From Candidatus Anderseniibacteriota bacterium (GTDB lineage Bacteria; Patescibacteriota; Andersenbacteria; UBA10190), in assembly GCA_021414205.1 (NCBI GenBank), contig JAIOOW010000002.1, positions 215,062 through 279,061 on the forward strand: a DNA stretch of 64,000 bases, in the 5' to 3' direction. Below, in pieces: positions 5,707 through 59,057 of the stretch; positions within the stretch are counted from its first letter, which is position 1, and each line of letters opens with the position of its first letter. The position numbers were made by a program, and so were the translations under genes. Under the pieces are notes generated by a model. That model ran no database searches. It worked only from the letters and a program-made list of their open reading frames with translations, and had not been told where the DNA came from.

Positions 5707-6132
5707 TCTCACACAATCAGGGCCGGCTGCAGAGACGGTAATGTTTTGCCACGCGATAACACTCTTATCCGCCGCACTTAAGATTTCAATACTTGCCGAA
5801 CCTTCCGGAATAGAACATGGAATTTGAATACTTGCAGTTCCTGCAAAAAATGGGGTCTCTTTTAATACTTGAACACCCTGCTTTGATCGCACCGCTACTT
5901 GCGCTTGCTGAGATGGAACTGAGCTTGGAGTATCCCAGCGAATAACAGTCTGCTCTCCTGCCTGCAATGGGCTCACGATATGCATTCCGATGCGCGTGAT
6001 TGTCGTATCATTTGAGCGAATAGATACGTTACCGATGATATTGATCAATATACCAATAAATAGCAGACAAATAGCCCCTAATCCGAAATATGCCCACCGT
6101 TGCTGTTTCTTATTCTTGTTCATGGGTTGCAC
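5704..6132 (-). CDS. membrane-anchored hypothetical protein
   Basis: N-terminal basic stretch plus TM helix; overlaps the upstream prsW-like gene by 23 nt. Confidence 0.5.
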   Translation of the reverse strand: MQPMNKNKKQQRWAYFGLGAICLLFIGILINIIGNVSIRSNDTTITRIGMHIVSPLQAGEQTVIRWDTPSSVPSQQAQVAVRSKQGVQVLKETPFFAGTASIQIPCSIPEGSASIEILSAADKSVIAWQNITVSAAGPDCVR

Positions 6133-7048
6133 TATATATAGTACGCGCTGATTTATTAGTATTCAACCATGGCGCATTAATGTTCCAAGGAGAATCGGTA
6201 ATCTTCATAGCTCTCTTTAGCATCGCAACATCTGGAGATTCCGGTGCGCGCGGATTCTCCAAAAACGCGCCATCTTGCCGATGAATAATAGAAAACTCCC
6301 GTTTCATAGTCCAGGAGATGAGGACAAAGAGTGCTGCAATTAACACGCAGATTGCATATAATCCGTACCCTATCCCTAACAATAAATCGAATGTCCCATG
6401 CAAGAACCAGGGGATAAGGAAAGCGGGAATGAAAAATTTATTTGGCCGGAATATTTGAAACGTTCCCTGCGCAATGAGGGCGCCCATAAGCCCCGCAAAG
6501 CAGATATGCGCAAGCGTCGAGATAATAAATCGCAAGAAAAAAACGAACACCAAGGTATCGTATTGTTGACTGGTAAGCAAATCATGAAAATACAGCGTAT
6601 TTTCCAATGTTGAAAATCCAAGTCCGACCGCAACTCCGATTAATAATCCATCGAATACCTGATTTATCCTTTTACTTCTCGACATCCAAAATCGCATCGC
6701 TACGTACCGCAGCCCCTCCTCAATCGGAGCAACTATGAAAAATGTAGCAAGCGCAGGCAATAAGACATCGAGTGGGGATAATAGCGGCAAAATTGCACCC
6801 GAATAATAATGCTCCGTTGCAGGAGATATAATCCCCCAAATCTGATCCGCTTTTTTCTCCAGCCAAAATGCGGGCTCAACCAATATAAGTCCGATTCCGA
6901 ACGCCATAGCTACGGTTGTAGGCGGCACGTTCCTGGTGCGATTCCGCAAATACCACATCCACAAGAAAAACCCAGCAGGAAGCAAGCTTAATAAGAATGC
7001 TACGATCGCAATCGAAACGCCCACTGGCAATACAATAGGGTCACCCAT
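6110..7048 (-). CDS. PrsW-family intramembrane metalloprotease
   Basis: Polytopic; APIEEGLRY (EExxK/R-like), FAGLMGA and HGTFD motifs typical of the PrsW/YpdC family. Confidence 0.65.
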   Translation of the reverse strand: MGDPIVLPVGVSIAIVAFLLSLLPAGFFLWMWYLRNRTRNVPPTTVAMAFGIGLILVEPAFWLEKKADQIWGIISPATEHYYSGAILPLLSPLDVLLPALATFFIVAPIEEGLRYVAMRFWMSRSKRINQVFDGLLIGVAVGLGFSTLENTLYFHDLLTSQQYDTLVFVFFLRFIISTLAHICFAGLMGALIAQGTFQIFRPNKFFIPAFLIPWFLHGTFDLLLGIGYGLYAICVLIAALFVLISWTMKREFSIIHRQDGAFLENPRAPESPDVAMLKRAMKITDSPWNINAPWLNTNKSARTIYSATHEQE

Positions 7049-7060
7049 TGATGTAGTATA

Positions 7061-7471
7061 TCACGAGGTGCGAATCAGCGATGACTTGTATTGCTCAGGC
7101 TTATGCGCAGGCAGCCGAACTACTTTGACGTTCGGCTTTCCGATAGTTCCCAAAATCGCCCACACGTCCTCATCGGAGGGTTTTTGATCATACCCCAAGG
7201 CCAATATATCAAAATCAAGATTTTTCAATAATGCGTATGATCTCGGATCTTCATCGCCAAGCACCGCCTCATCAACATCTGGATTTTCTTGAACGGCCTG
7301 CAAGCGTTCCTGTTCTGAAATATGATGTGAACGCTGCTTTTCAATCGAGATAGTTGCATCGCGGGACACCACAACAATCAAATAATCCCCCATCTTTTTC
7401 GCTTCTCGAAATAAAAATTCGTGCCCAGGATGGAGCGGATCAAACGTGCCGAACACGACTATTTTTTTCAT
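7061..7471 (-). CDS. cytidylyltransferase-like nucleotidyltransferase (RibL/TagD-like, HxGH)
   Basis: FGTFDPLHPGHEFL (T/HxGH) motif; overall resemblance to archaeal-type FMN adenylyltransferase / glycerol-3-P cytidylyltransferase. Confidence 0.7.
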   Translation of the reverse strand: MKKIVVFGTFDPLHPGHEFLFREAKKMGDYLIVVVSRDATISIEKQRSHHISEQERLQAVQENPDVDEAVLGDEDPRSYALLKNLDFDILALGYDQKPSDEDVWAILGTIGKPNVKVVRLPAHKPEQYKSSLIRTS

Positions 7472-7473
7472 AT

Positions 7474-7782
7474 CTATTTTGCTGGCGGTATGTAGAATAC
7501 CGAGCTGTTTACTACGGGATTTTTTTTGGCAGACTCTTCCTTAAGAGATGCATACTTCTGGACCTCGGTAAGGGCGGATTTCGCGACAGAGACAGAACTT
7601 TGAACGGTTACTTGTAAATCAGGAGGAATAACGGGCGACTGCAACGCATATACATATACGACAATTGCGGCACACACTCCACCGATAGCAAAGAAGAGTA
7701 TTGATATAATAGACATGCTGTACAATACCACATGCAAAATAGAGTTTTTTATTCGCTGCATGATATTGGAAAAAGAATTCAT
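7474..7782 (-). CDS. small single-TM protein at the 3' end of the pilus operon (PilP-like position)
   Basis: One TM helix; operon context only. Confidence 0.45.
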   Translation of the reverse strand: MNSFSNIMQRIKNSILHVVLYSMSIISILFFAIGGVCAAIVVYVYALQSPVIPPDLQVTVQSSVSVAKSALTEVQKYASLKEESAKKNPVVNSSVFYIPPAK

Positions 7783-7783
7783 A

Positions 7784-8362
7784 TTATTTCAAAATACTAA
7801 TAACAATATCCGCCTCAAGAGAACTCCCCTGAGGAGCATTCGGCAAAGGCGATGTTGCAGGTACGGACGAGAAAAAATTCAGCGCTACAACGTGCGTCGT
7901 ATCGATACTCCACGATGCCACATACAACAAATACGGAAGCTGCTCGATACGATACAAAAATCCCATGAGCGCCGTTGGCGTGCCAGATGCGCTAATGTGA
8001 AAACGAACATCGTCTAACGGGTCGCTTACAGGCGAGCCCTTTGTTGTGTTTTGAGTAACTTGCGGAACTTGGGCAGACACCCCTGCCAATACAGCAGTTC
8101 CCTGGATCGCACGCACCACTTCCGGCAAGCCGTCTCGCCGCACAGTCATTTTTTGCAATGAATCCATTTTACTCTGCGCATCGGATAGCTCCTTCTTCAA
8201 ACGATCTGTTTCCTGCATTTCCTTGGGAGCGGAATCAATACGCTGCTGGCGCATGGCAACATCTGAGCGAATCGAAAGAAGCTTTACGTGCGCAAAACCA
8301 ATAGCAACAAGCGCAACGACGATCAAGATAAGTAAAAAAATATTTGCTTTAGAAAATATCAT
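7784..8362 (-). CDS. pilO: type IV pilus assembly protein PilO-like
   Basis: N-terminal TM plus coiled-coil; immediately downstream of pilN with an ATGA overlap. Confidence 0.6.
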   Translation of the reverse strand: MIFSKANIFLLILIVVALVAIGFAHVKLLSIRSDVAMRQQRIDSAPKEMQETDRLKKELSDAQSKMDSLQKMTVRRDGLPEVVRAIQGTAVLAGVSAQVPQVTQNTTKGSPVSDPLDDVRFHISASGTPTALMGFLYRIEQLPYLLYVASWSIDTTHVVALNFFSSVPATSPLPNAPQGSSLEADIVISILK

Positions 8363-8904
8363 AGAACTCCCCCATTATCTGCTTTTCTCACGATCGTGAA
8401 TACGGCGATTGCATCTGGCGATTGCGCAAAGTTTTGCAGCGGCGCATCAACATGATCTACCCATGGGAGCGATTCAAGCGCATGCTGATACTGCACTACA
8501 ACATCGCCATTAATTGCCTTTCCGGTTACAACTAGCGCTTCAGGATTCTCGGTCAACTCAAGTTTCGTAACTTTAATCCCAGTAGGCACAGCAGCAAATA
8601 GTTCCTGTATATGAATCGCCCAGCGAGGATTAGTAGTAATGCGTCGATCCATTGCCTGAATAACTACATTCAACGAAGAAATACTCTTCTCAACATCCGA
8701 CCGATTCTTCCCCTGCTCTTGCAATCTTGTATCGAGCGAGTTTCGAATAATGATATTTGCCTCTAACGAAGCGCCATATGCTATTAAAACAATCATGCAT
8801 AATGCAAACAACGCAGTTAATAGCGACTGCAACCGATGGCGTGCAACGAGCGCCATTCTTGCTGTTCGAGCTTCGGGAGATAGTAAATTAATTTCTGATT
8901 TCAT
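8359..8904 (-). CDS. pilN: type IV pilus assembly protein PilN
   Basis: N-terminal EINLLSPE (PilN INLLP motif) followed by a TM. Confidence 0.7.
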   Translation of the reverse strand: MKSEINLLSPEARTARMALVARHRLQSLLTALFALCMIVLIAYGASLEANIIIRNSLDTRLQEQGKNRSDVEKSISSLNVVIQAMDRRITTNPRWAIHIQELFAAVPTGIKVTKLELTENPEALVVTGKAINGDVVVQYQHALESLPWVDHVDAPLQNFAQSPDAIAVFTIVRKADNGGVL

Positions 8905-9932
8905 AGAGAAACTACTGTTCGCAGCGCCAGCCCAAGTGCAGTTGCATATCGAACAGATTCTTGAATATTCAATGGGGCATGGGACCGCTCCTTGGCAGAC
9001 AAGATATTAACCCAAGGATTTCCGCGCTCCACATGAATATCTTCAAAATGATGCAAAAATGCCGTATCAAGCCCGGTTAAATTTGAACCTCCGCCTGTCA
9101 TAATAATTTCGCGAACCCTGTGATTCGCATCAATACTGTTATAAAAATCCACAACCCCCTTAATGTCTAGCACCAGCTTGTCGAGCCCTGGCTCAAGCTG
9201 AGGAGTAACCCGCTCAAGCAAGTCAGCTGGAATATTCTGCAAATTCTGCATTAGCTGCTCTCGATCTTGCACGGAAAGTCCTGCTGCTAAATTTTTCACG
9301 CCTTGTTGCAAGCTGGCCGTAAACCTGCTTGCACCTACATCATGCACAATAACATTCGTGGACGTACTTCCGACGTCGACAATAATCACTCCTTGCTTGC
9401 CATATAGCTCCGGCGAGATGAGCGCGCGCACTATTGCTTGGCTCTCCAATTCAAAGGCGGCAACATCTAGCCCAATATCCATTATCACCTCATATAACGG
9501 ATCCACTACTTTTTTCTGGGCAGCGCCCACCTGAACTTCCCTCTTTCCTTCCGCTACCTTATGACCACTGTCCTCGAGAGCCTGCCAATCGATATATACA
9601 CTATCTACGCTAAATGGAATATGCTGAGCAATTTCAAATCGGATCGCCTCCTCAACCTCATCGTCCGACATGTTCGGTAATTCAATAACACGCAAAAACG
9701 ACTGAGTCTCTGGAATAGATACAACAACGGTATCTTTTTTTGAACTATTGATCCTGCAAGAAGATAGCGCCTTCTCAACTGCTTCCTGCATAGCTTTTTT
9801 ATTAATGACAACGCCATTCTCAATAACTCCGGCTGGAATAGTATAAATACATTTTGCAAGCAGGCGACGCACGCTTCCATCGGAAAGCTGCGCGATCTTT
9901 ATCGTTTGATCCGATATGTCTAAACCAATCAT
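8901..9932 (-). CDS. pilM: type IV pilus assembly ATPase-fold protein PilM
   Basis: MIGLDISDQTIKIAQL... actin-like fold matches the PilM family; start taken as the internal ATG at 9932 because the upstream extension overlaps the preceding gene. Confidence 0.85.
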   Translation of the reverse strand: MIGLDISDQTIKIAQLSDGSVRRLLAKCIYTIPAGVIENGVVINKKAMQEAVEKALSSCRINSSKKDTVVVSIPETQSFLRVIELPNMSDDEVEEAIRFEIAQHIPFSVDSVYIDWQALEDSGHKVAEGKREVQVGAAQKKVVDPLYEVIMDIGLDVAAFELESQAIVRALISPELYGKQGVIIVDVGSTSTNVIVHDVGASRFTASLQQGVKNLAAGLSVQDREQLMQNLQNIPADLLERVTPQLEPGLDKLVLDIKGVVDFYNSIDANHRVREIIMTGGGSNLTGLDTAFLHHFEDIHVERGNPWVNILSAKERSHAPLNIQESVRYATALGLALRTVVSL

Positions 9933-9951
9933 AGGATGTATACCTATTGTA

Positions 9952-11322
9952 CTATTTTTGCTGCCAAGACAGAAACTGATATTCCCCTGTTGTCGGAAAA
10001 TACGGAGGGGGACCGTACAGTAAATTCGAATCATACGAAGACGTTCCGCTTTGATATCCTCCTATAACTGCATTGCTCCCATTCACCCATGTAGTAACTG
10101 GTACGAGATTGCTTGCTACCATTCCATACGTAGTAATAGAGTTTCGCAATATATAAGATCCAGTATTGTAATATCGTCGGCCAAACCTGCCATGCTGCGC
10201 TACGAACGCTCCATCCATTTCTAGGTTATTTGCCGCACCGGAATTCGGAATAAGTACATTGCCTTGCGACACCGCGCCGAACTCGCGTGTGCCGTCTTTG
10301 ACGCCGCCATACGTAACACTTCCGTTTATAATAATATCCGTATAGGTACTTGGGTTTTCCGGAAACTTTCCCGATGCAATAGTTACCCTGCTTGCAACAG
10401 TACCCTCAACCCACACAGAATCCTCAAAAAACAATATCCCGCCAGATGGAACAGTTGCCGACGTAACCAGGGACTCCTTCTTAATATCATACGAGGAGCT
10501 CACCCAGCCATCATCAGGGAAATAAGAAGAGATGTTGGATTGCTTACTCGTTACTTTATACAGTGAGTACGTATTATTCGAGTTAAATACAATATGGTAC
10601 CCATATCCTCCAGATGAGCCAAAATACGTATTCGCAGATTGAGCAGCTGCTTTCATGGAAACCAAATCCGCAGTAAGCCCGGCATAATCTACTGAAGAAA
10701 CAGGATATTGCCACAAGGCACTGTTTCCGCCGGACCCCCATACTCCTGGTTTCGTAGGATTCCCGCTGCATCCTTGTGTTGATTTGCACGTATATGTCGC
10801 CTTCGCACTTGTCATCGTGCTATCCGACTGACCATCCATGCGAATTCCGCCATTCGAATGCACTGCCCCCGAAATTGTTTCACCAAACCAAACATCGTCA
10901 TTGAGCAGCATTGCATATTTCGCAAATGACGGCTTTCCGTACGTTGCCTGCAATGTCACATCGCGAACCGGCGCAGTGGCCGTGTGACCAACAGATGTGA
11001 TTTGCACAATAGTGCTCCCATTTTGGGGAGGGACAAATGTAAGCGTATATGTTCCCAACACACCCTTTAGCTGATCGTATACCTGGTTTTGAACAGAGGA
11101 AAAATCGTTTCCGTTATGTGCCAAGCGCCATCGAGCATAATTCAATCCTGATTCCGCAACTTGAAATGCAGTTTCGTCTTGCGCCGTGAGCCCCCCTTGC
11201 TGATACTGCTGATTCGTCACTCCACCCAGCGACACGAACATCACACCGATCATCATGACCAGCACAACCATCATAATTAAAATCGAACCGGATTGTTTTT
11301 GCTTGCTCAGATTTATCTCCAT
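9952..11322 (-). CDS. large PilX-N-domain-like pilus-associated secreted protein (456 aa)
   Basis: N-terminal hydrophobic anchor then AFQVAESGLNYARWRL (PilX N-terminal-like); Ser/Thr/Gly/Asn-rich beta-rich remainder. Confidence 0.55.
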   Translation of the reverse strand: MEINLSKQKQSGSILIMMVVLVMMIGVMFVSLGGVTNQQYQQGGLTAQDETAFQVAESGLNYARWRLAHNGNDFSSVQNQVYDQLKGVLGTYTLTFVPPQNGSTIVQITSVGHTATAPVRDVTLQATYGKPSFAKYAMLLNDDVWFGETISGAVHSNGGIRMDGQSDSTMTSAKATYTCKSTQGCSGNPTKPGVWGSGGNSALWQYPVSSVDYAGLTADLVSMKAAAQSANTYFGSSGGYGYHIVFNSNNTYSLYKVTSKQSNISSYFPDDGWVSSSYDIKKESLVTSATVPSGGILFFEDSVWVEGTVASRVTIASGKFPENPSTYTDIIINGSVTYGGVKDGTREFGAVSQGNVLIPNSGAANNLEMDGAFVAQHGRFGRRYYNTGSYILRNSITTYGMVASNLVPVTTWVNGSNAVIGGYQSGTSSYDSNLLYGPPPYFPTTGEYQFLSWQQK

Positions 11323-12641
11323 GATGGAATGCTAAACAGCATCGTTTGCCAAAATGGCGGAATCGGATAGCCATATGTAAGAGGACTGATATACAAAAAT
11401 CCCAAGAATATAACGATACATGCCGTAATCACAAATTCTTTTTTGCGCACCACATGCTTATCCATCCACCAAATGGCAATAATGATCGAAAACACTAGTG
11501 GCGTAAGATAATGATATAAAAACAGTACGCGAGGAACGCGCATAAGTGGAACATACGCCCAGAGATAACCTACAATCATCAGCCAGACGTATCCCGAATT
11601 CTTGATAGATATTTTTTTCCTTTGAATACCCGATACGATCATAGCAAGCATCGCAATGCAGAAAAATATGAATCCCCCCCACCACACTGCCGGATTACCC
11701 AATAGGTACACAAACTGATTCCCGGAATTTCCTTGCCAATAAAATACCGGACGAATCATAAACGGCCACGTCCACCATTTACTTCCATATGGATGCCCGG
11801 CCGTTAAATTATAGTTTGCAGAAATCATTTCTTGGTGAATAGAGATAATGTCTTGTGCAAAATTTCCTGTTGGAACCCCCCATACATCCCCAGAGCCCGG
11901 AAGAGTAAGTATTGAAAAATGAATTGCCCAAGCACCTAGATACACCACTATTGCACACACTCCCACGATAATCGCCTTTGCTGCCCACGATGCGACTACT
12001 ACCCTTTTTTTCTTCCACGCTTCAACAATCCACAATATAATCACAAGCCCCCCTGCAATAAGGCCGGTAAATTTTATTCCCATAGAAGCGCCTGCCAGGA
12101 TTCCCGTAAGAATTACAAATATCCATGATGCTAGCTTGCTACGGACCTTAATGCTCGCAATTGCCGATGCAATAGTCCCAAACGTTGCAACAAGCAGAAT
12201 GTTATCCATCAAAATAAATCTAGATTCAACGATGAGTGCATTATCGAGCGCAATGGCAACGCCACCTAACAACGCAAACAATCTTGAGACATTCATCAGA
12301 CGCAACAATATAAATATCACTCCTGCTAATACCGTCCCAAATAATGCGGGTACCAACCGAATGCCCGCAATAGGAACGTTCGTGAACGGCTGACCAATAT
12401 ACTCAAATGGAAACAAGCCGTTATACCCAGACAGGTACGCTCCAAATGCTATAACTAATTTTCCAATCGGTGGATGAATATCGAAAAATCGCTCATGCGT
12501 ACAACAGTATGCAGAAACAAATTTTCCAAAATGCACTTCATCAAATACGACTTGCGGGATATACGACAAAAACAACACACGAGCAAGCAGCGCAACTATA
12601 ACAACAACTAGTACTGCCAGAATGTCTTTTTTAGTAATCAT
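11313..12641 (-). CDS. dolichyl/polyprenyl-phosphate-mannose protein O-mannosyltransferase (PMT family, GT39, GT-C fold)
   Basis: DEVHFGKF loop-1 motif after the first TM; polytopic about 440 aa typical of bacterial PMT. Confidence 0.75.
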   Translation of the reverse strand: MITKKDILAVLVVVIVALLARVLFLSYIPQVVFDEVHFGKFVSAYCCTHERFFDIHPPIGKLVIAFGAYLSGYNGLFPFEYIGQPFTNVPIAGIRLVPALFGTVLAGVIFILLRLMNVSRLFALLGGVAIALDNALIVESRFILMDNILLVATFGTIASAIASIKVRSKLASWIFVILTGILAGASMGIKFTGLIAGGLVIILWIVEAWKKKRVVVASWAAKAIIVGVCAIVVYLGAWAIHFSILTLPGSGDVWGVPTGNFAQDIISIHQEMISANYNLTAGHPYGSKWWTWPFMIRPVFYWQGNSGNQFVYLLGNPAVWWGGFIFFCIAMLAMIVSGIQRKKISIKNSGYVWLMIVGYLWAYVPLMRVPRVLFLYHYLTPLVFSIIIAIWWMDKHVVRKKEFVITACIVIFLGFLYISPLTYGYPIPPFWQTMLFSIPSWR

Positions 12642-13228
12642 AGATTTGTTTTAAGATTCCTAAGCTGAACTTGCGATTGAAGGGTAACTGCTGGCGGATC
12701 CTGGGTAGTATCCGCATCAATGGTAAGGGTAAATGAAATATACGTAATACTCGCAATGTTCGTTCCCGATACCTGGGATTGGTTCGTAGGATAGTTACTT
12801 CCATAATAGTAAAATACTGGATTTGCGCCATTTCGAACAGACCGAGCAATGGTGGTTACTTTCTCCTGAGCAGTATTATAGGTAGCCGGGCTTCCACTTG
12901 GCTTTGTAACCCCTCGAACTAAATCGGTTCCGACGAGCTCGTATCTGATTCGCTCAATCGACGCGTCGCTATCTGCATTTGCATAAAAAATAAAACGCGA
13001 CGACGATGCTTCTATAATAGGAAATGCCCCTGTATCTGACGGCTGAGCAGAACGAATTTCGTGGGTCATTCTCTTTAATTGCACACGAGCAGTTTCATCT
13101 GCAAGCTCTTGTTCAAACGTCGACCGATATATCGGCAAGGCGCCTGCCATAAATCGGATAAGCCCCATAATAAGCAAACTTGATATGGCAATTACTACCA
13201 CTACTTCAACTAATGTAAACCCTTTCAT
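12638..13228 (-). CDS. type IV prepilin-like protein (class III signal peptide, 196 aa)
   Basis: MKG|FTLVEVVVVIAISSLL prepilin leader with G at -1 and hydrophobic helix. Confidence 0.8.
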   Translation of the reverse strand: MKGFTLVEVVVVIAISSLLIMGLIRFMAGALPIYRSTFEQELADETARVQLKRMTHEIRSAQPSDTGAFPIIEASSSRFIFYANADSDASIERIRYELVGTDLVRGVTKPSGSPATYNTAQEKVTTIARSVRNGANPVFYYYGSNYPTNQSQVSGTNIASITYISFTLTIDADTTQDPPAVTLQSQVQLRNLKTNL

Positions 13229-13229
13229 A

Positions 13230-14549
13230 TCAAGAACCTGCCAACTGAATAGTACTATTCACATTCCCATCAACCGTAATAGTGCCCGTATACACTTGGT
13301 ATCCGCTCGCAGTAGCAGTTACGGCATAATCGCCAGATTGCGTCATCGTATTCAAGAACACCTGTCCAGTTGCACCTGTTTGCTTGGTTACATCAAACCC
13401 GTTTTTAACCACCTCGACCGCAACACCAGATACTGACTGCCCGCTCGCATTTACAACAGTTATATGCGCAGACAATGCCTGATGCGGCATCAAGGTTACC
13501 GTAAGCGTAGTATCATCGCCAGGCTTCAACACAAGAGGAACAGGCACGCTTGTATCAGAAATATCATATCCTGTTGCAGTACCGTCAACTGAAAGCGCAT
13601 ATGAATCCCACGTCATGTTTTGATACGCAATGGATCCGCCGGAATCAGTGGTGTCATTGTGAGAGAACAGATATACGGGTTGCGCAGTTGCGTCTGTCCC
13701 AATTTTCTTTGTCCCAGTAATACTAAATGGGACAGATCCCAAGGCAGCCCCATTCTGATCCACCGTCTTAATTGTAAGCTTGCTTGAGGCGTCTATCGCA
13801 AATGTTTTATTCGTCACCGATCCGGCAATTGCATTCAGTCGAGAATGGTCGGCATCAGGAGTAAAATTAGCAGAAGATGCATAAGTTTGTTCTGTTGTAT
13901 ACCCCGACTTCGAAACGGTTAACTGATATGTGCCAGAGGAAACTGGTAAACCAGGTATAACGACTTGCCCACTGGAGTTTGTATATGTTGTAAGATTAAC
14001 AGTCGGCGTCACGGAGCTATTCGTAAGCTGCACAGTAGCTGAATCGACTCCTGTTCCCGCAGAATTCAACGCCTGAAACACTAACGTACCAAGCGAATCA
14101 CCACCCTCGATACCGCTCGGAGCGACCTGTGCGATGAGCAATACTGATCTGCTTGGCAAAGAGCTGGCCCACGTAACCTCCACTCGAGCCTGTTTATAAT
14201 CCGTATTGACCGTGTCCGGGGGATTACTCGTTGCAGTTCCATCATATGAATCGTCGATGTATCGTATATCGGTTGCGACTGTAAACGTTTGGCCGTTTCT
14301 GGTAACTTGCTGTGTCTGAGGAATAGAACCTGACGGTATTCCACCAACGGTTCCAACGCTTGCATAGGGCAAATTACGAATCTGCTCCATTTTCTCATTC
14401 GCCAGTCCAGTAGCAATAATGCGCAACTGACCGTCATGCGAAGCTTTTAATGTAAGCGTGATCATGGAAAAGATACCGACAACTACCGTTCCGAGCACAA
14501 ACCCCGCAATAACAACTTCTAGCAATGTAAACCCAGATTTAGATGACAT
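13230..14549 (-). CDS. large prepilin-like protein (439 aa) with Ig-like/carboxypeptidase-regulatory-like repeats
   Basis: MSSKSG|FTLLEVVIAGFVL class III leader; Thr/Ser-rich beta-domains (SGYTTEQTY, SGYQVYTGTITV). Confidence 0.75.
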   Translation of the reverse strand: MSSKSGFTLLEVVIAGFVLGTVVVGIFSMITLTLKASHDGQLRIIATGLANEKMEQIRNLPYASVGTVGGIPSGSIPQTQQVTRNGQTFTVATDIRYIDDSYDGTATSNPPDTVNTDYKQARVEVTWASSLPSRSVLLIAQVAPSGIEGGDSLGTLVFQALNSAGTGVDSATVQLTNSSVTPTVNLTTYTNSSGQVVIPGLPVSSGTYQLTVSKSGYTTEQTYASSANFTPDADHSRLNAIAGSVTNKTFAIDASSKLTIKTVDQNGAALGSVPFSITGTKKIGTDATAQPVYLFSHNDTTDSGGSIAYQNMTWDSYALSVDGTATGYDISDTSVPVPLVLKPGDDTTLTVTLMPHQALSAHITVVNASGQSVSGVAVEVVKNGFDVTKQTGATGQVFLNTMTQSGDYAVTATASGYQVYTGTITVDGNVNSTIQLAGS

Positions 14550-15750
14550 TCACCAAACTATAAATAGGAGAAATAATTGATATTGCCAATGCCCCTACCG
14601 CAAGCCCAATCGCAATCATCAACACCGGCTCCATAATCGATGTGAGGTTTTTCATCGTTTGATCTACTTCACCTTCATAAAACGACGCAACCTCCTTCAG
14701 CACTTCTGCGAGCTCTCCTGTTTGTTCGCCAACACTCATAATACTCACCACAAGAGGAGGAAACAATCTCGCATAATTCAAAAAATAATCGCTCAATAAA
14801 TTGCCTTTCTTTACATGTTCCTCAGCTCCAATAAAAATGCTGGCATACACAGGATTCGCAGTATTTTTTCCCATAATAAGCAACGCTTCCGTAAATGCCA
14901 CTCCGCTCGATAATAATGAACTTAAGTTTCTACTCAAGCGAGCTACGTTTATCTGTTTTATAATCGGACCAACCACCGGAGAGATCAAGAATGCTCTTGC
15001 AATAAGCATACGGCCCGATGTCGTCGTTGACATGAGGCGGAATCCAATACTAAGAAGTACGCACACGCCCAGCGCAATGTACCAATAGGAGGAAATCCAT
15101 GAACTGGTGCCCAACAATATGCGGGTCATTAACGGCAACTGAACGTGAAATCCATTAAAGATATCTACCAGCTTTGGTACAACGAAAATCATCATTGCGG
15201 CCCCCACTGAAAAAAGCGCCGTAATGATGACGGCCGGATACATCATCCCGCCCTGAATCGCTCTGCGCAATTCAAATTCTTTTTGAAGCTGCAACGCTAA
15301 TATCTCCAGCGTTTCTTGCAATTTTCCCGTTGCTTCTCCAACGCCCACAAAACTTACGAATAGGCTTGGAAATGCTTTAGGGTATGGTCGCATACTTTCC
15401 GAAAGCGTCTTTCCCTTTTCAATTCCTTCCACCACGCTTGTAATGGAGTTTTTCAACGTTAGATTTTTCGTCTGGTTTTTCAGCGTTTCCAGCGACTGCT
15501 TCACATCAAGACCCGCTCGCAACATGAGCGCAAAATATCGTGCAAATAATACCCTTTCCAAAACAGGAACATGGGAAATGATGCCGTTTATAGACATCGC
15601 CGAAGATTCTTTATGCTCCTTATATGATGTCAGCAAAATCCCCTCTTTGAGCAAATCTTGCCCAAGTACCGCATGCGATACCGCATCGCGAACCCCTGTT
15701 GCGCGCTCCCCAGTCCTTGCATGCACTCCCTTAAAAATATACTGAGCCAT
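14539..15750 (-). CDS. pilC: type IV pilus platform protein PilC (GspF family)
   Basis: Two GspF repeats, 3-4 TM, 403 aa. Confidence 0.9.
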   Translation of the reverse strand: MAQYIFKGVHARTGERATGVRDAVSHAVLGQDLLKEGILLTSYKEHKESSAMSINGIISHVPVLERVLFARYFALMLRAGLDVKQSLETLKNQTKNLTLKNSITSVVEGIEKGKTLSESMRPYPKAFPSLFVSFVGVGEATGKLQETLEILALQLQKEFELRRAIQGGMMYPAVIITALFSVGAAMMIFVVPKLVDIFNGFHVQLPLMTRILLGTSSWISSYWYIALGVCVLLSIGFRLMSTTTSGRMLIARAFLISPVVGPIIKQINVARLSRNLSSLLSSGVAFTEALLIMGKNTANPVYASIFIGAEEHVKKGNLLSDYFLNYARLFPPLVVSIMSVGEQTGELAEVLKEVASFYEGEVDQTMKNLTSIMEPVLMIAIGLAVGALAISIISPIYSLVNVI

Positions 15751-15754
15751 ATAA

Positions 15755-17497
15755 TTATTCTTTTGCTACTCGAAGAACTTCTTCTAAACTGGTAATTCCG
15801 CGCGCTACCTTGATAATACCATCCTCTAACATGCTTACCATTCCCTGCTCTTCCCGGGCAGCTGTTTCAAGTTCATGAGCCGTGATATTTCCCGTGACCA
15901 TCTTTTGTAAAGATGGAGTCATTTCAAACATTTCATGGATTCCTTTCCTACTCTTGTATCCCTCATGACACCTGTCGCATCCCACAGCTTCGAATAACGA
16001 CACATCTTCCCATGTTCCGCCTCCTTGAACCACTCCCTCTTGTTTTAATAATTCAAGCATATGATCAGCATCGACAATATCCGCAATGCTTGTTTTCATA
16101 GCATCCGTTACGCGCACTTCTTTTTTACAAGAGTCGCATAATTGTCGAACCAATCGCTGCGCAACAACGACGTTGATTGTAGACGCAAGCAAGAATGGTT
16201 CCACTTTCATGTCCATTAATCGCGGAATTGCACCCGTAGCACTATTAGTATGCAATGTAGACAATACCAAATGGCCGGTTAAAGCAGCATTTACTGCCAA
16301 TGATGCAGTTTCTTGGTCTCGAATTTCTCCAACCATAATAATATCCGGATCTTGACGAACAAGCGCTCGCAAACCATTTGAAAACGTCAATCCGATTTTT
16401 GGCTGAACCTGAGTTTGGTTCACGCGCTTCATCCGATATTCAATCGGATCTTCTATGGTACTGATATTCACGTCTTTAGTATTGAGCTCTCGCAGTACTG
16501 CATACAACGTAGTCGTTTTTCCAGATCCCGTTGGACCTGTAACCAAAATCATTCCATTGGGCTTTGCAATATTGTTGCGAAACATGTCTATATTTCTTTT
16601 CGACAGCCCAATTCGATCTATCGTGAGTCCATTTCCCGATTCATCTAGCAGACGCATGACGATTTTTTCTCCATCGAATACCGGGAGCGTAGATACGCGA
16701 AACGCCACATTATAATCATCGCTCTCCATTTTAAAGCGACCATCCTGAGGCAGCCGGTGTTCGTCAATCTTTAAATTGCTTAAAATCTTTATGCGCGCAA
16801 CCACTCCAGCAAGCACCGTTTTTGGCAACACCATCATATCGTGCAATATCCCGTCTATACGATATCTCACAACAACGGCATCTTCAGTAGGCTCTATATG
16901 AATATCTGAAGCATCTTTTCCAATAGCATGCCGCAACACTGCATCAACTATTTTAATAATGGGCAGGTCTTCAGCAACCTTCGATAAATCAGTATCCGTA
17001 TTACTCATTCTTACTCCTCGAGCCTCTTTCATAATCTGATCAAGGTCCGCCTCCAGCGACCCTGCATATTTCGGAAACACGTCCCTAATCGCAGAAGAAC
17101 TTGCGATGCTTACGATAACTGCAACATCTACTTTTTTGTGAATAAACTCAATAATCTGCCGATCTGCCGGATCTTCCATTGCAATAAGTAATCCTGCGTC
17201 CGTTTTATCATACGCAATCACCATGTGCTGGCGCGCAGTAGATTCTGGAATAATTTCCAATACCTCTTTTTTTATTTGGATAGACCTCAAATCTACGTAT
17301 GAAAGGCTCATTGCATTTGCATATGCCTTTGCATAATCCTCTTCACCGACCGCAAATTTGCCAATCAGCGTATTCTTGAGCGTCTCTTTTCCTTCTTTTG
17401 CCTCCACAATTGCGCGCGCAGCATCTTCTGCAGAAATTTTCTGCAGCTCAACAAGGATATGCAATACTTTTTCGTCAACCCCCTCTGCCATACTCAC
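15755..17497 (-). CDS. pilB: type IV pilus assembly ATPase PilB (GspE family)
   Basis: Walker A GPTGSGKTT, GspE N-domain; GTG start, with an in-frame ATG at 17491 preceded by a TGCTATACT -10. Confidence 0.9.
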   Translation of the reverse strand: MSMAEGVDEKVLHILVELQKISAEDAARAIVEAKEGKETLKNTLIGKFAVGEEDYAKAYANAMSLSYVDLRSIQIKKEVLEIIPESTARQHMVIAYDKTDAGLLIAMEDPADRQIIEFIHKKVDVAVIVSIASSSAIRDVFPKYAGSLEADLDQIMKEARGVRMSNTDTDLSKVAEDLPIIKIVDAVLRHAIGKDASDIHIEPTEDAVVVRYRIDGILHDMMVLPKTVLAGVVARIKILSNLKIDEHRLPQDGRFKMESDDYNVAFRVSTLPVFDGEKIVMRLLDESGNGLTIDRIGLSKRNIDMFRNNIAKPNGMILVTGPTGSGKTTTLYAVLRELNTKDVNISTIEDPIEYRMKRVNQTQVQPKIGLTFSNGLRALVRQDPDIIMVGEIRDQETASLAVNAALTGHLVLSTLHTNSATGAIPRLMDMKVEPFLLASTINVVVAQRLVRQLCDSCKKEVRVTDAMKTSIADIVDADHMLELLKQEGVVQGGGTWEDVSLFEAVGCDRCHEGYKSRKGIHEMFEMTPSLQKMVTGNITAHELETAAREEQGMVSMLEDGIIKVARGITSLEEVLRVAKE

Positions 17498-17515: not shown

Positions 17516-17986
17516 TTACTGTACGGTAATTGTTGCGTGAAATGCTGCATGCAAATGGTCATGCATGCCGAACGTTCCAACTTTCACAAATGTAAATCGA
17601 TAAAAGTCGCCGGGCGCAAGCGCATGCTTTGAATCGAATCCTGGCAGATCAGTATGGATCGGGTGCGGATCGGACGCTGGCCAGTGAGGCGAAGTGCCCG
17701 TATTTTTAAACGTTATCGTTGTTCCAGATTTTACCGTAATAGCATTTGGGACAATTCCAGCATCAGTCATTTCAACAACCGGATTTTCCGCTGCCATTAC
17801 ATCAGGTGTTATACTTGGCGCTTGTTGCACCAAAACCCCCGACGGAGAAGACGACGGCTCAGACGTAGGATTGGCATGAATATTTATAGCCTCATCATCT
17901 TGCCCTCTATGACTCATAACGTAGGCACCTGCGCCTATAATAATAACGGCGATAATAAGTAACGATATTGTAGTTGATGTTTTCAT
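17516..17986 (-). CDS. secreted/anchored cupredoxin-fold-like protein lacking Cys
   Basis: N-terminal TM, Pro/Ser linker, beta-sandwich-like C-domain with His-rich motifs (HWPASDPHPIH, FGMHDHLH) but no cysteine. Confidence 0.45.
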   Translation of the reverse strand: MKTSTTISLLIIAVIIIGAGAYVMSHRGQDDEAINIHANPTSEPSSSPSGVLVQQAPSITPDVMAAENPVVEMTDAGIVPNAITVKSGTTITFKNTGTSPHWPASDPHPIHTDLPGFDSKHALAPGDFYRFTFVKVGTFGMHDHLHAAFHATITVQ

Positions 17987-18021
17987 ACAATAACTATACC
18001 CCCGTATGCTATACTTTGGCC

Positions 18022-19644
18022 ATGTCCCTTCAAGAAGATTTGCAACGTATCATGCATGGCGAAGTTGCAGTTGACGAAACGGCAAAAAATGCAGCTAGCC
18101 GCGACACGAGCCTATTCCAAGTGCAACCTTCCGCAGTAGTTCACCCGATGAATGTGCACGACGTGTGCGAATTAGTGACATATGCAAACACTCACGAAAA
18201 TGTTTCTCTTACTGCTCGAAGCGCCGGAACGGATATGACCGGCGGTCCGCTTTCCAATGGAATTATCCTAGACATGACAACGCACTTCACTCGCATCGGT
18301 GAGATACACGGCGCTTCTATTACGGTTGAGCCAGGCGTGTATTACCGAGATCTAGAAAAAAAGACTTCAGAAAAAAACTTGGAACTGCCATCCTACCCCG
18401 CATCAAAAGAACTATGCACTGTGGGCGGAATGGTAAATAATAATTCCGGCGGAGAAAAGACTCTTCAGTACGGCAAGACTGATAGATACATTCAAGAGCT
18501 TTCTATTGTATTGTCTGACGGCAATGAATACAAATTAAGTCCTCTTACTACATCAGAATTAGATGTTGCGATGAAGCAGCAGGATTTTTTGGGTCAAGTA
18601 TATAGAGACGTGTACGAATTGCTAGAAAAAAATTACGATGCAATCCAAACGGCAAAACCACATGTATCTAAAAACTCTGCAGGATACGCGCTCTGGAATG
18701 TATGGGACAAAAAAACATTCGACCTCACAAAACTATTCGCGGGCTCCCAAGGAACGCTCGGCATAACAACAGAAATTCAATTCGGACTCGTTCGCCCAAA
18801 GAAGCATGCCGTTATGCTCGTACTCTTTTTACGTTCACTGGAACCGCTCGCAGAACTCACGAACCATATTTTAAAGTATCAGCCAGAAAGCTTTGAATCA
18901 TACGACGACCACACGCTTTCTGTGGCGCTCAGACTCTTCCCCAGCTTTGTAAGAAAATTAAAAACAAATGCATTCGCACTAGGGCTGCAGTTCCTCCCGG
19001 AATTCATGATGATGCTGAGAGGCGGACTTCCAAAATTGATTATTATGGCAGAATTCACGGGCGATGATGAAGACGAAGTAGTGCTCCGCGCGCAAAATGC
19101 GCAAAGTGCCGTTGCGAAATTCAACGTTCAATCAAGAATTGCCGTCAGTCAGCAAGAACAGGATAAATACTGGACCATTCGACGAGAAAGCTTTAACCTC
19201 TTGCGCCACCATGTGCAGGGTAAGCACACGGCACCGTTTATAGATGATTGTATTGTGGAGCCGAAATACTTGCCGGAATTCTTGCCGAAGCTTGCGGCTA
19301 TTTTAAACAAATATAACTTAGACTATACAATCGCTGGCCACGTCGGTGATGGAAATTTTCATATTATTCCGCTCATGGACTTACGCGATGAAAAGCAGAA
19401 AGCAATTATTCCGAAAGCGTCCAAAGAAGTATACGACTTGGTATTTTTATTCCACGGATCTTCAACTGCGGAACATAACGACGGATTAATCAGAAGTCAT
19501 TTATTACCGCAAATGTACGGGGAAGAAATCTACAGTTTATTTGAGGAAACAAAAAAGATATTCGATCCAAAAAATATTTTCAACCCGGGCAAAAAAGTAA
19601 ACTCAGATTGGAAATACGCGCAATCGAAAATAACGGCGTATTAA
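18022..19644 (+). CDS. FAD-binding oxidoreductase (FAD-linked oxidase, GlcD/D-lactate dehydrogenase family)
   Basis: FAD_binding_4-like N-domain (ARSAGTDMTGG, CTVGGMVNNNSGG); ATG at 18022 sits 6 nt after a TGCTATACT -10 (track ORF extends to 17974). Confidence 0.8.
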   Translation: MSLQEDLQRIMHGEVAVDETAKNAASRDTSLFQVQPSAVVHPMNVHDVCELVTYANTHENVSLTARSAGTDMTGGPLSNGIILDMTTHFTRIGEIHGASITVEPGVYYRDLEKKTSEKNLELPSYPASKELCTVGGMVNNNSGGEKTLQYGKTDRYIQELSIVLSDGNEYKLSPLTTSELDVAMKQQDFLGQVYRDVYELLEKNYDAIQTAKPHVSKNSAGYALWNVWDKKTFDLTKLFAGSQGTLGITTEIQFGLVRPKKHAVMLVLFLRSLEPLAELTNHILKYQPESFESYDDHTLSVALRLFPSFVRKLKTNAFALGLQFLPEFMMMLRGGLPKLIIMAEFTGDDEDEVVLRAQNAQSAVAKFNVQSRIAVSQQEQDKYWTIRRESFNLLRHHVQGKHTAPFIDDCIVEPKYLPEFLPKLAAILNKYNLDYTIAGHVGDGNFHIIPLMDLRDEKQKAIIPKASKEVYDLVFLFHGSSTAEHNDGLIRSHLLPQMYGEEIYSLFEETKKIFDPKNIFNPGKKVNSDWKYAQSKITAY

Positions 19645-24549: not shown

Positions 24550-25971
24550 ATGAACAACGTGCCATTATGCGTGGACTTAGACGGAACGCTCGTCCGAACA
24601 AACACATTACTCGAGACGACACTTATTACATTAAAAAAGAACCCGTTCTTTCTAATTTCCCTTGTAAAGGGGTTGCCCCGCGGCAAAGCATTCGTCAAAC
24701 GGCTCATTGGAAAACAATTTTCTACAGACCCGGCAACTTTGCCATACAATACCGAATTTCTCGACTGGATTAGGCAAGAGCGTGCAAATGGGCGAACGCT
24801 CATTCTCGCAACTGCAAGCGACGAATTAATCGCAAAAAAAATTGCTGACTATCTCGGAATATTTAGCGCCATCATTGCCAGCACGCCAGAAAAAAGCGTG
24901 ACAGCAGATGGAAAGGCACTGGTACTATGTGCGATGTACGGTTCTAGCAATTTTTCTTATGCCGGCAACTCCCATTCCGATTTATCCGTATGGAATTGCA
25001 GTAACAATGCCATACTAGTAGACGCACCAAACAATATAACTTCACAAATAAAAAAAGAAGTTCATATTGAAAAAGAATTCACAACACACACCGCGCCAAA
25101 ATTAAAAGTCATCGCAAAGACAATGCGCATTCATCAGTGGGTAAAAAATACGCTGTTATTCATACCAGCACTTGCTGCCCATGAATTATTTCAAACGCAC
25201 ACTGCAATTCAAGCGATCGTCGGCTTTTTATCATTCAGCTTACTTGCATCTGCCGTATATATTTTTAACGATATCACTGACATCCCTTCCGATAGAGCGC
25301 ATGCCACAAAGAAGTTCCGCCCTATTGCATCTGGCGCAATAGCAATCAAGCAAGCACTAGCACTCGGCGTAATCTGTTCCGTAGCAAGTATTGCCTTATC
25401 CCTACTGGCCCTCCCGATATCATTCCTCTTGATTCTTGCGATCTATCTTGGTATCAATATTTGCTATTCGCTATTCGCAAAGAAAATCGCATATCTCGAT
25501 ATTATTATCTTAGCCAGCTTATACGTACTTCGTGTGTTTGCGGGAAGCTTCGCCACAGGAATTGCAACATCAAAGTGGCTGTTCGTATGGACGCTTTTCT
25601 TCTTCTTAAGCCTGGCAATCATGAAGCGTGTTATTGAGTTGCTCAAGCACACAAAAGAAGAAAAACTGCATGGCAGAGGCTACCATAAAGCAGACAGATT
25701 AATCCTGGAGTATGCTGGCATTGCCTCGGCAAGCATTTCGGTCATCATTCTAGCTTTATATATTCATAGCCCATCGATATTCGTTCTCTATACATCCCCC
25801 GCATTACTGTGGGGCATGGTAGGCGTTGTCATGCTTTGGCTTGGGAGAATATGGACACTAGCCCTTCAAGGAGAACTTCCTGACGACCCGGTGTTATTTG
25901 CCGCTACGGACCCAATAAGCTATGGCGCTATATGCGTCATCATTGCAACCATGTTGCTTGCGTCCCACTAA
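24550..25971 (+). CDS. HAD-phosphatase / UbiA-prenyltransferase fusion (decaprenyl-phosphate phosphoribosyltransferase-like)
   Basis: N-terminal DLDGTL HAD motif I; C-terminal polytopic UbiA domain with NDITDIPSDRAHATKKFRPIASG (NDxxDxxxD). Confidence 0.8.
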   Translation: MNNVPLCVDLDGTLVRTNTLLETTLITLKKNPFFLISLVKGLPRGKAFVKRLIGKQFSTDPATLPYNTEFLDWIRQERANGRTLILATASDELIAKKIADYLGIFSAIIASTPEKSVTADGKALVLCAMYGSSNFSYAGNSHSDLSVWNCSNNAILVDAPNNITSQIKKEVHIEKEFTTHTAPKLKVIAKTMRIHQWVKNTLLFIPALAAHELFQTHTAIQAIVGFLSFSLLASAVYIFNDITDIPSDRAHATKKFRPIASGAIAIKQALALGVICSVASIALSLLALPISFLLILAIYLGINICYSLFAKKIAYLDIIILASLYVLRVFAGSFATGIATSKWLFVWTLFFFLSLAIMKRVIELLKHTKEEKLHGRGYHKADRLILEYAGIASASISVIILALYIHSPSIFVLYTSPALLWGMVGVVMLWLGRIWTLALQGELPDDPVLFAATDPISYGAICVIIATMLLASH

Positions 25972-30963: not shown

Positions 30964-30974
30964 TATGCGCATAT

Positions 30975-32507: not shown

Positions 32508-32531
32508 GCTATTTTAGGACAATCTTAAAGA

Positions 32532-35319: not shown

Positions 35320-35337
35320 TAGAGAGCATACTGTCGT

Positions 35338-43045: not shown

Positions 43046-43055
43046 ATAGCTTTCT

Positions 43056-44336: not shown

Positions 44337-44354
44337 ACGAAATGAATACGAAAT

Positions 44355-58983: not shown

Positions 58984-59057
58984 ACGCAAAGTATAGCATA
59001 GTCCACATGTCAAGTTGCGTTCGTATCTTGCGAGTATACGCTTAGATATAGAAAGAG

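Follow-up and report, generated by a model that had tools for sequence, protein, structure and literature searches.

A GT39 protein O-mannosyltransferase gene embedded in a type IV pilus operon of Andersenbacteria and retained in relatives that lack the flanking pil genes

The DNA analysed here, a stretch of 64,000 nucleotides from contig JAIOOW010000002.1 (positions 215,062-279,061) of assembly GCA_021414205.1 of an uncultured, ultrasmall Candidatus Anderseniibacteriota bacterium, called the window below, harbors a type IV pilus (T4P) operon in which a gene for a predicted protein O-mannosyltransferase (PMT) of glycosyltransferase family 39 (GT39) lies between genes for pilin-like proteins. 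All ten open reading frames (ORFs) of positions 7474-17497 were confirmed on the minus strand at the coordinates first assigned to them, and their family matches bear out the packed operon that a preliminary description had proposed, with pilB, pilC, pilin genes, pilM, pilN, pilO and a gene for a small transmembrane (TM) protein (Table 1). The matches of PilB, PilC and PilM are strong and those of PilN and PilO weak but positionally conserved, which gives a type IVa-like monoderm assembly set. The PilM ORF runs to position 10034; since residue 37 is the first one covered by the PilM_2 match and orthologs have 341-344 amino acids, translation most likely starts at M35 (position 9932) and yields a protein of 343 amino acids. 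The GC content of the window is about 44% throughout, without a compositional island. At the gene junctions, the pilC stop overlaps the gene for the 439-aa pilin by 11 nt, a gap of 1 nt separates the latter from the gene for the 196-aa pilin, and the stop of this gene overlaps the PMT start as ATGA. An ATGA overlap had been described for both sides of the PMT gene; at the downstream side, the PMT stop and the gene for the 456-aa protein in fact overlap by 10 nt (ATGGAGATAA). Judged from these junctions, the PMT gene is embedded in the T4P operon and translationally coupled to it, and we infer that it is co-transcribed with the genes of the pilus tip module described below.

The PMT protein matched the Pfam families PMT (PF02366; 146.9 bits, cutoff 22.7, profile positions 3-244 of 245) and PMT_4TMC (PF16192; 116.1 bits, cutoff 32.4). 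The Pfam search gave only these two, with no match to Wzy_C and none at E<=0.1 to the PMT_2/ArnT family (PF13231). A phmmer search of the PDB yielded Pmt4 of C. thermophilum as the best match (9i5k, E 7e-48), followed by yeast Pmt1 (6p25, E 2e-39) and then Pmt4 and Pmt2. The signature DEVHFGKF noticed earlier is present at residues 34-41, and the stretch vvFDEVHFGKF aligns residue for residue with the identical motif of the solved fungal enzymes 9i5k and 6p25. Among 42 homologs of 41-77% identity, D34, E35, H37, D54, H56, R95, R141, D146, K190, H241, H283, R371 and H377 are invariant. The AlphaFold2 model, for which 42 homologs were used (pLDDT 90.8, pTM 0.92), was compared with known structures by Foldseek, which gave query-normalised TM-scores of 0.87-0.91 with Pmt1, Pmt2 and Pmt4 (E 1e-16 to 2e-22) as compared to 0.54 with ArnT, about 0.5 with AglB/STT3 and 0.48 with AftA. 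Profile and fold both argue for a genuine PMT/GT39 enzyme; an ArnT/GT83 identity, which had been named as the alternative, was ruled out by the absent PMT_2 match and by a TM-score of 0.54 against 0.9 for the PMTs.

Hydropathy analysis places TM1 of the PMT at about residues 4-22, with the N-terminus (MITKKD) inside because of its positive charge. The loop of 53-70 residues that follows carries D34-E35 and two short helices, as in the 'EL1' arrangement of GT-C enzymes, and the acidic pair is predicted where the first extracytoplasmic loop begins, in the loop that had been expected to carry it. Pfam detected no MIR domain in the protein, and the PDB alignments skip chain residues ~323-548. To our knowledge, the absence of MIR domains is the rule among bacterial GT39 enzymes, and it excludes only the eukaryotic PMT1/2/4 subfamilies. 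The enzyme scored 167 bits against fungal PMTs as compared to 32.5 bits against the curated bacterial Pmt equivalog of NCBIfam (NF058602, cutoff 800), and it represents a distinct, divergent and minimal branch of bacterial GT39. The clade of minimal, MIR-less PMTs that comprises the window protein and the loci L024-L049 unites Patescibacteria with metagenome-assembled genomes (MAGs) of Pseudomonadota, Bdellovibrionota and Nitrospirales and scores far better against fungal PMTs than against the NCBIfam equivalog; it may bear on the origin of the eukaryotic enzymes. In a neighbor-joining (NJ) tree the Andersenbacteria PMTs are placed beside proteobacterial ones and not beside those of other Patescibacteria, which hints at horizontal transfer.

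The proteins encoded around the PMT gene had all three been described as prepilin-like. Two of them, of 439 and 196 amino acids, carry canonical class III prepilin motifs, and these motifs (at 14534 and 13222, respectively) are the only ones in the window. After its N-terminus the 439-aa pilin consists of beta-sandwich domains (CarboxypepD_reg, SpaA-like, PEGA). Sequence searches of the PDB gave no matches for this protein and nothing useful for the 196-aa pilin (E 0.085 to geopilin). The third protein, of 456 amino acids, lacks a canonical prepilin motif and matched nothing in Pfam or NCBIfam, and the earlier assignment stands for it only in the sense of a non-canonical GspK/ComZ-type protein. 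Its AlphaFold2 model (pLDDT 88.2) consists of an N-terminal helix of 66 residues (4-69) and a large all-beta domain, and the only significant fold matches in the PDB were three chains of 6qvi, the ComZ protein of T. thermophilus (best E 1.3e-10, probability 1.0, with a global TM-score of just 0.29). The modelled fold supports the assignment as a tip pilin of this type. ComZ is a tip pilin of the competence pilus whose pseudopilin fold contains an inserted beta-solenoid; a role as DNA receptor has been proposed for it (PMC6561018). In view of the ComZ-like fold, and of the weak resemblance of the other two pilins to PilV/GspI and GspJ at their N-termini, the PMT gene looks to be located inside a tip-complex module of the I-J-K type.

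Table 1. Operon genes and other features of the window considered in the text.
Feature	Position	Strand	Evidence
Membrane-anchored plastocyanin-like cupredoxin	17516-17986	-	PF13473, 33 bits; plastocyanin matches in the PDB
PilB-type assembly ATPase	15755-17497	-	PF00437 (T2SSE) 437.5 bits; PF05157 (MshEN); TIGR02538 548 bits
PilC platform protein	14539-15750	-	PF00482 (T2SSF) 180.8 bits, two stretches
439-aa minor pilin	13230-14549	-	Class III signal SG/FTLLE; PilV/GspI-like N-terminus (weak match)
196-aa prepilin, GspJ/PilW-like minor pilin (weak)	12638-13228	-	KG/FTLVE; PF07963 25.2 bits; TIGR02532 above cutoff
GT39 protein O-mannosyltransferase, 442 aa, ~11 TM helices, MIR-less	11313-12641	-	PF02366 and PF16192
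ComZ-like tip minor pilin, 456 aa	9952-11322	-	Predicted structure; 831 homologs; 100% identical to NCBI protein K8Q97_01190
PilM	8901-9932	-	PF11104 (PilM_2) 128.9 bits; TIGR01175 151 bits (cutoff 133)
PilN-like bitopic protein	8359-8904	-	PF05137 22.2 bits, under cutoff (22.8); place after PilM kept in relatives
PilO/GspM-like bitopic protein	7784-8362	-	NF040576 (GspM) 31 bits, E 1.5e-7, below cutoff; position conserved
102-aa single-TM protein	7474-7782	-	One TM region; orthologs in L007 and L009
Cytidylyltransferase-like (CTP-transferase) gene, trailing, co-oriented	7061-7471	-	TIGR00125 57 bits
PrsW protease gene, trailing, co-oriented	6110-7048	-	tblastn, 83-84% identity to the L001 ORF carrying PF13367
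335-aa membrane-anchored protein, Gmad2-like Ig domains (weak match)	58066-59073	-	Thr/Pro-rich linker TPTPLPISTPTPLPSVSATP
Soluble GT2, candidate polyprenyl-phosphate-mannose (hexose) synthase	40026-40760	+	P. furiosus DPMS 5mlz
HAD phosphatase and UbiA fusion, polyprenyl-phosphoribofuranose-synthase-like	24550-25971	+	NF006088 536 bits (cutoff 351)

The setting of this module was compared across relatives by sampling one genome per GTDB species and analysing the best 80 PMT loci (32-90% identity), with their 10-kb flanks, by tblastn of the window proteins, a prepilin-motif scan and an NJ tree of 84 PMTs; loci and genomes of relatives are referred to by L numbers. The closest PMT homologs carry Andersenbacteria names. 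All PMTs with pil neighbours on the same strand belong to one monophyletic clade of Andersenbacteria and MAGs labelled generically as 'Saccharibacteria', to which 30 of the 80 sampled genomes belong. This pil clade includes all 28 genomes with a pil-embedded PMT, of which the 27 with a near-full-length PMT are monophyletic in the NJ tree; the partial PMT sequences of L015 and L062 were kept out of the tree and placed by identity and synteny. The gene order in the clade is PilB-PilC-439-196-[0-4 extra pilin-like genes]-PMT-(ComZ-like)-PilM-N-O…CTP-transferase-PrsW, and the PMT gene mostly overlaps its neighbours or lies less than 100 nt from them. Reciprocal sampling by the ComZ-like gene gave 80 metagenome loci. 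Where the ComZ-like gene was at least 50% identical to that of the window, the PMT gene was found directly upstream in all 14 informative loci, and together with the embedded position in 28 of the 29 informative species genomes of the clade this answers positively the question, raised at the outset, whether PMT and pil genes are syntenic in related genomes. The arrangement has become fixed throughout this clade, which is of class rank. At 36-41% identity of the ComZ-like gene, all 41 informative operons of sister lineages have the order PilB-PilC-439-196-456-PilM without a PMT gene, and the 196-aa homolog abuts the ComZ-like gene (~600 nt upstream). Because these sister operons share the gene order and have no PMT, the comparison shows that the PMT gene was inserted precisely between two minor-pilin genes in one lineage.

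The sister clade of PMTs (Pseudomonadota, Bdellovibrionota, Nitrospirales) and the outgroup (Yanofsky-, Pacei-, Moranii- and Giovannonibacteria) showed no operonic pil genes at their PMT loci. An ancient linkage of PMT and pil genes across Patescibacteria was rejected on account of the outgroup loci. In L054, L071 and L077 pilin clusters occur near the PMT gene on the opposite strand, in L054 with five unrelated genes in between. Within the pil clade, the number of extra pilin-like genes between the 196-aa homolog and the PMT varies from none to four (L008, L018, L022, L041, L050). Their products reach 859-1199 amino acids, some with LTD or CarboxypepD_reg domains, and the core of PMT, ComZ-like and PilM genes is fixed; the variable genes look like a hypervariable adhesin cassette beside a constant module. 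Another recurrent neighbour is a gene for an FAD-linked oxidase (FAD_binding_4 and FAD-oxidase_C), which in the outgroup Paceibacteria and Yanofskybacteria L070, L075, L076 and L079 belongs to an operon of divergent orientation, at a distance of 1.5-3.5 kb from the PMT gene, and has its counterpart in the window at 17974-19644. This adjacency seems to be older than the embedding among pil genes.

Two nested lineages have retained the PMT gene without its pil surroundings. In L001 and L002, two independent assemblies in which the PMT is 72% identical and sister to that of the window, the gene order is FAD-oxidase, cupredoxin, PMT, CTP-transferase, PrsW, and both flanking pil blocks are gone. 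In L003, whose PMT (56% identity) is sister to that of a full-operon genome, only a truncated PilB is left by the PMT gene. This remnant of 438 amino acids (8569-9885; 64% identical, without the N-terminal MshEN region) is either a pseudogene in decay or an ATPase put to another use. The genomes in which pil genes are missing beside the PMT are GCA_964507875.1, GCA_035480115.1 and GCA_040384205.1; in the pil-less relatives the CTP-transferase and PrsW genes come straight after the PMT gene, and the cupredoxin gene still adjoins it in L001 (9460-9954) and L003 (7371-7883). The PMTs of both lineages are full length, have kept all invariant residues and show no long branches in the NJ tree. Since the flanking pil genes were deleted in two nested lineages and a conserved PMT was kept, the enzyme is evidently maintained by selection without the pilus and would have a pilus-independent role. 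The preliminary description had regarded the PMT as dedicated to the pilus; this view is rejected in the light of the retention in L001/L002 and L003, as seen in the 10-kb flanks of the PMT loci, and it also conflicts with the 41 sister operons without a PMT gene.

The co-oriented gene string of the window probably reaches past the pil genes, from the cupredoxin gene to at least the PrsW gene. The latter was assigned through identity to the L001 ORF, to whose product the PF13367 (PrsW-protease) match belongs. The cupredoxin gene ends 18 nt before pilB and is probably the first gene of the transcription unit. Upstream of the cluster, the sole promoter-like site on the minus strand (18022-17993) gives a weak hint of a promoter in front of the cupredoxin gene, and a scan for promoters and terminators at the operon boundaries returned counts no better than those of shuffled sequences. 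A cupredoxin is unusual as the first gene of a pilus operon, and a blue-copper protein is odd in a fermentative genome of the candidate phyla radiation (CPR).

Possible acceptors of the PMT are exported proteins rich in serine and threonine. The Ser+Thr contents of the 439-aa (25%), 196-aa and 456-aa proteins are 25.1%, 20.2% and 19.9%, as compared to a mean of 13.1% (standard deviation 3.4) for the window, and their ranks of 1st, 2nd and 4th among 56 ORFs agree with the earlier statement that the flanking pilins are Ser/Thr-rich. As evidence for the pilins being substrates, this richness is weak. Two other membrane-anchored proteins may be acceptors as well. The cupredoxin, a candidate non-pilin substrate, has a Ser/Thr/Pro-rich linker (…NPTSEPSSSPSG…APSITPD…), with 19% Ser+Thr and 8% Pro in the protein and up to 26% Ser+Thr in relatives. 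In the 335-aa protein the Ig domains are joined by the linker NATPTPLPISTPTPLPSVSATPVTTG, and with 20% Ser+Thr and 8.7% Pro it is likewise a candidate acceptor. O-Mannose is located on similar linker regions of actinobacterial GH6 mannoproteins (PMC11727336).

Two genes of glycosyltransferase family 2 (GT2) had been proposed to encode polyprenyl-phosphate-mannose synthases (Ppm). For the protein of 40026-40760 this is plausible: it matches the dolichyl-phosphate-mannose synthase (DPMS) 5mlz with E 2.1e-16 over residues 8-231, i.e. the full catalytic domain, scores 47.5 bits (below cutoff) against the dolichyl-phosphate hexose transferase model NF041391, and is the best candidate for a donor synthase. 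The other, at 27580-28293, is a generic GT2 with a match over its N-terminal half only, and a role as Ppm is unsupported past this generic similarity. Two more GT2 genes are found at 30139-30963 and 34486-35319. A second lipid-linked donor would probably be formed in the cell by the HAD-UbiA fusion enzyme, which also scored 127-159 bits against models of decaprenyl-phosphate phosphoribosyltransferase (DPPR synthase). The same architecture is found in ORF15 of Citrobacter youngae, a polyprenyl-phosphoribofuranose synthase of the 'three-component' pentofuranose pathway (PMC11127046), and the gene would imply that this CPR bacterium attaches ribo- or arabinofuranose outside the cytoplasm.

Other glycan-related genes of the window include a biosynthesis cluster at 29346-45476 with a ROK kinase, three GT2s, three GT4s, an FkbM methyltransferase and a Mur-ligase-like gene. 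Three polytopic proteins with no or weak family matches, of 510 (9 TM, weakly MmpA-like), 1201 (11 TM) and 775 (11 TM) amino acids, are encoded there as well and may represent new GT-C enzymes, polymerases or flippases. At 52371-54494 on the minus strand, a 707-aa protein in which a VTT/DedA-like domain is fused to a PAP2 phosphatase and an LssY_C domain has a possible function in recycling or flipping of polyprenyl-(pyro)phosphate, which would be relevant to the supply of lipid-linked sugars. Apart from these, a tmRNA gene (Rfam, 84.6 bits) is located beside an ORF of 149 amino acids (features at 1420-1824 and 1834-2283, both minus strand); in relatives, the ortholog of this ORF has been assigned to SmpB (PF01668). 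No tRNA genes were found in the whole 64 kb.

Prepilins insert with the N-terminus inside and the C-terminus outside, by which their Ser/Thr-rich globular domains are exposed at the outer face of the membrane. The explanation that we favor is that the enzyme is a general PMT for surface proteins that also glycosylates the co-expressed tip pilins, to which we assign a probability of roughly 0.5. A GT39 gene would have been inserted, in the ancestor of the clade, between the genes for the GspJ-like and the ComZ/GspK-like minor pilins and would have been co-transcribed with them since. A cytoplasmic GT2, best represented by the candidate at 40026-40760, would load mannose from GDP-mannose onto polyprenyl phosphate, and the lipid-linked sugar would be flipped outward. 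By analogy with its family, the 11-TM PMT, with the Asp-Glu pair in its first extracytoplasmic loop, would then transfer mannose to Ser/Thr residues of anchored exported proteins. As the PMT and the tip module would be produced jointly, the three minor pilins (439-aa, 196-aa and ComZ-like 456-aa) are likely to be glycosylated before assembly by PilBCMNO. Most likely the PMT also serves other anchored proteins with Ser/Thr/Pro linkers, such as the cupredoxin and the protein of 58066-59073, and pilus-less relatives would therefore have kept it. The position of the PMT gene suggests sugar-coated pili, with mannose as the presumed sugar and pilins as the presumed acceptors. A more specific proposal, that a eukaryote-like GT39 PMT was captured by the tip-pilin module of a Patescibacterial T4P and O-mannosylates tip pilins including the ComZ-like putative DNA or host receptor, is tentative, with the odds somewhat against it. 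The anatomy and evolutionary history of the embedded PMT are solid; its function in pilin glycosylation is putative.

Several observations weigh against a role of the PMT in pilus glycosylation. No major pilin, prepilin peptidase PilD or retraction ATPase PilT was found in the 64-kb window; these may be encoded on other parts of the 470-kb source contig. In distant members of the clade the Ser+Thr content of the pilin-like proteins is only 13-17%. Orthologs from operons with a PMT gene are about 2 percentage points richer in Ser+Thr than those from operons without one in the case of the 196-aa pilin (14.5% versus 12.4%, p = 0.004) and the ComZ-like protein (16.4% versus 14.2%, p = 9e-5), which speaks weakly in favor of the pilins as acceptors; the comparison is confounded by GC content (48% versus 39%) and, in phylogenetic terms, comes down to one contrast. 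Cytoplasmic controls did not share this excess. No such difference was seen for the 439-aa protein and PilB, and PilC and PilM are slightly lower in Ser+Thr in operons with a PMT gene. As a signature of PMT-coupled pilins, Ser/Thr richness is accordingly weak, the difference being small, confounded and absent from the 439-aa protein. Retention of the PMT after loss of pilus genes and the existence of PMT-free sister operons indicate that neither partner needs the other, and the 41 sister operons imply that this type of pilus does not intrinsically require a PMT. Unrelated genes (CTP-transferase, PrsW, L20/L35/IF3) are syntenic in the clade as well, so that the conserved position of the PMT gene is weak evidence of functional coupling, and given the FAD-oxidase/PMT adjacency in the outgroup, part of the arrangement may be historical.

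The last of these points also speak for the most serious alternative, which we consider less likely than the favored explanation, namely that the PMT is a housekeeping general O-mannosyltransferase and a mere passenger of the operon, with pilins that are not meaningful substrates and a neutral position frozen by synteny and compaction. It agrees with the two independent lineages in which the flanking pil genes were deleted and the PMT stayed intact, with identical pilus operons lacking PMT in sister lineages, with synteny of the entire neighbourhood and with a FAD-oxidase/PMT adjacency that predates the clade, as well as with the single PMT locus per genome seen among the 80 best matches and the presence of non-pilin proteins with Ser/Thr/Pro linkers. 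Less easily reconciled with a passenger are the insertion exactly within the minor-pilin module and the persistence of overlaps or gaps of mostly less than 100 nt down to about 35% PMT identity, despite a variable number of pilin genes upstream. The flanking pilins are, moreover, slightly richer in Ser/Thr than PMT-free orthologs, and as the enzyme is co-translated at the membrane with exported Ser/Thr-rich pilins, incidental glycosylation would be hard to avoid.

It is improbable that an enzyme of PMT fold uses another donor, such as ribofuranose from the HAD-UbiA lipid or glucose, or acts on a non-protein envelope polymer. The HAD-UbiA fusion, similar to polyprenyl-phosphoribofuranose synthases and above cutoff, lies 7 kb from the operon and stays nearby in relatives, the sugar specificity of the GT2 candidates is unreadable from sequence, and the low score against the NCBIfam Pmt equivalog fits such a deviation. 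All characterised GT39 enzymes, however, use polyprenyl- or dolichyl-phosphate-mannose and protein Ser/Thr (PMC11727336), and the close match to Pmt1/2/4 in fold and sequence, with the DE motif and its loop conserved, contrasts with TM-scores of only 0.45-0.49 between the PMT model and the pentofuranosyl GT-Cs AftA and Emb; the 510-, 775- and 1201-aa polytopic proteins are better candidates for a pentofuranose GT-C. A glycosyltransferase strictly dedicated to the pilus, mannosylating only the pilins or adhesins of its own operon, would suit the embedded, translationally coupled place between pilin genes and the clade-wide synteny, but is more improbable still, since an accessory gene of that kind is expected to decay with its system and two independent lineages dropped the pilus genes around a conserved PMT that stayed in its place on the chromosome.

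T4P are near-universal surface organelles of Patescibacteria (CPR), bacteria dependent on other cells, and serve in host attachment, motility and probably DNA uptake. Pilin glycosylation in these bacteria has so far been a software prediction without a known enzyme (PMC11623550), for which the PMT provides a concrete, testable candidate, and the tip pilins would be candidate substrates. Matched natural controls exist in the sister operons without a PMT gene and the relatives with a PMT and without a pilus. If tip pilins are indeed mannosylated, this would be the first case of pilin glycosylation by a GT39 enzyme and the first glycosylation system with a genetic link to minor instead of major pilins, and the PMT would be the first protein-glycosylation enzyme identified for the organelle that is central to host interaction in CPR bacteria. 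Pilin glycosylation elsewhere protects from pilus-specific phages (bioRxiv 10.1101/150227), and such blocking may apply to interactions between CPR bacteria and phages. Hardly any work exists on GT39 enzymes of bacteria other than Actinobacteria (PMC11727336); because of its far better match to fungal PMTs than to the bacterial model, the 442-aa enzyme could serve as a minimal model for PMT mechanism and evolution.

Among known systems, the window PMT is similar to yeast Pmt1, Pmt2 and Pmt4, Rv1002c of M. tuberculosis and Cg1014 of C. glutamicum, with which it shares the PMT and PMT_4TMC domains, the GT-C fold and the DE motif in loop 1. As with the characterised GT39 enzymes, its predicted targets are Ser/Thr residues of exported proteins, modified on the outer side of the membrane with polyprenyl-phosphate-mannose as the donor. 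Unlike the eukaryotic PMTs it is MIR-less, as are other bacterial PMTs, and has only 442 amino acids. It differs from characterised GT39 enzymes in its Patescibacterial host and in its location inside a T4P operon, which has been reported for none of them; full-text literature searches on GT39/PMT with pili, Patescibacteria or Andersenbacteria gave no prior description of a GT39 gene in a pilus operon.

A membrane glycosyltransferase within a pilin gene cluster is likewise found in P. aeruginosa (TfpW, TfpO/PilO) and Neisseria (PglL). These enzymes use a polyprenyl-linked donor at the outer face and O-glycosylate Ser/Thr of the pilin before assembly (bioRxiv 10.1101/2020.04.19.049825). The likeness is one of organisation only: TfpW is an arabinofuranosyl GT-C and TfpO and PglL are oligosaccharyltransferases of the Wzy_C type, whereas the window enzyme belongs to GT39. 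Moreover, TfpO, TfpW and PglL adjoin and modify the major pilin, whereas the PMT gene is located among minor (tip) pilin genes, and unlike the pilin-cluster systems TfpO and TfpW the PMT evidently has a pilus-independent function.

With respect to the pilus itself, the closest parallels are ComZ/PilA2 of T. thermophilus and the pili of Saccharibacteria. The 456-aa protein is the only one in the window with a predicted fold that matches ComZ, and like ComZ it combines a pilin stem with a large beta-rich insertion, has a small minor pilin adjacent and would find no room in the fibre body; the two proteins share about 13% sequence identity, at the low global TM-score given above. The paper on the Thermus ComZ locus reports no associated glycosyltransferase and does not contain the string 'glycos' (PMC6561018). 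The T4P-1 and T4P-2 systems of Saccharibacteria strain TM7x are also Patescibacterial monoderm T4P with several minor pilins that carry large accessory domains. O-Glycosylation of the TM7x pilins is a prediction by the GlycoPP software, with no glycosyltransferase linked to the pil loci (PMC11623550), whereas in the operon described here a specific enzyme is genetically embedded among the pilus genes.

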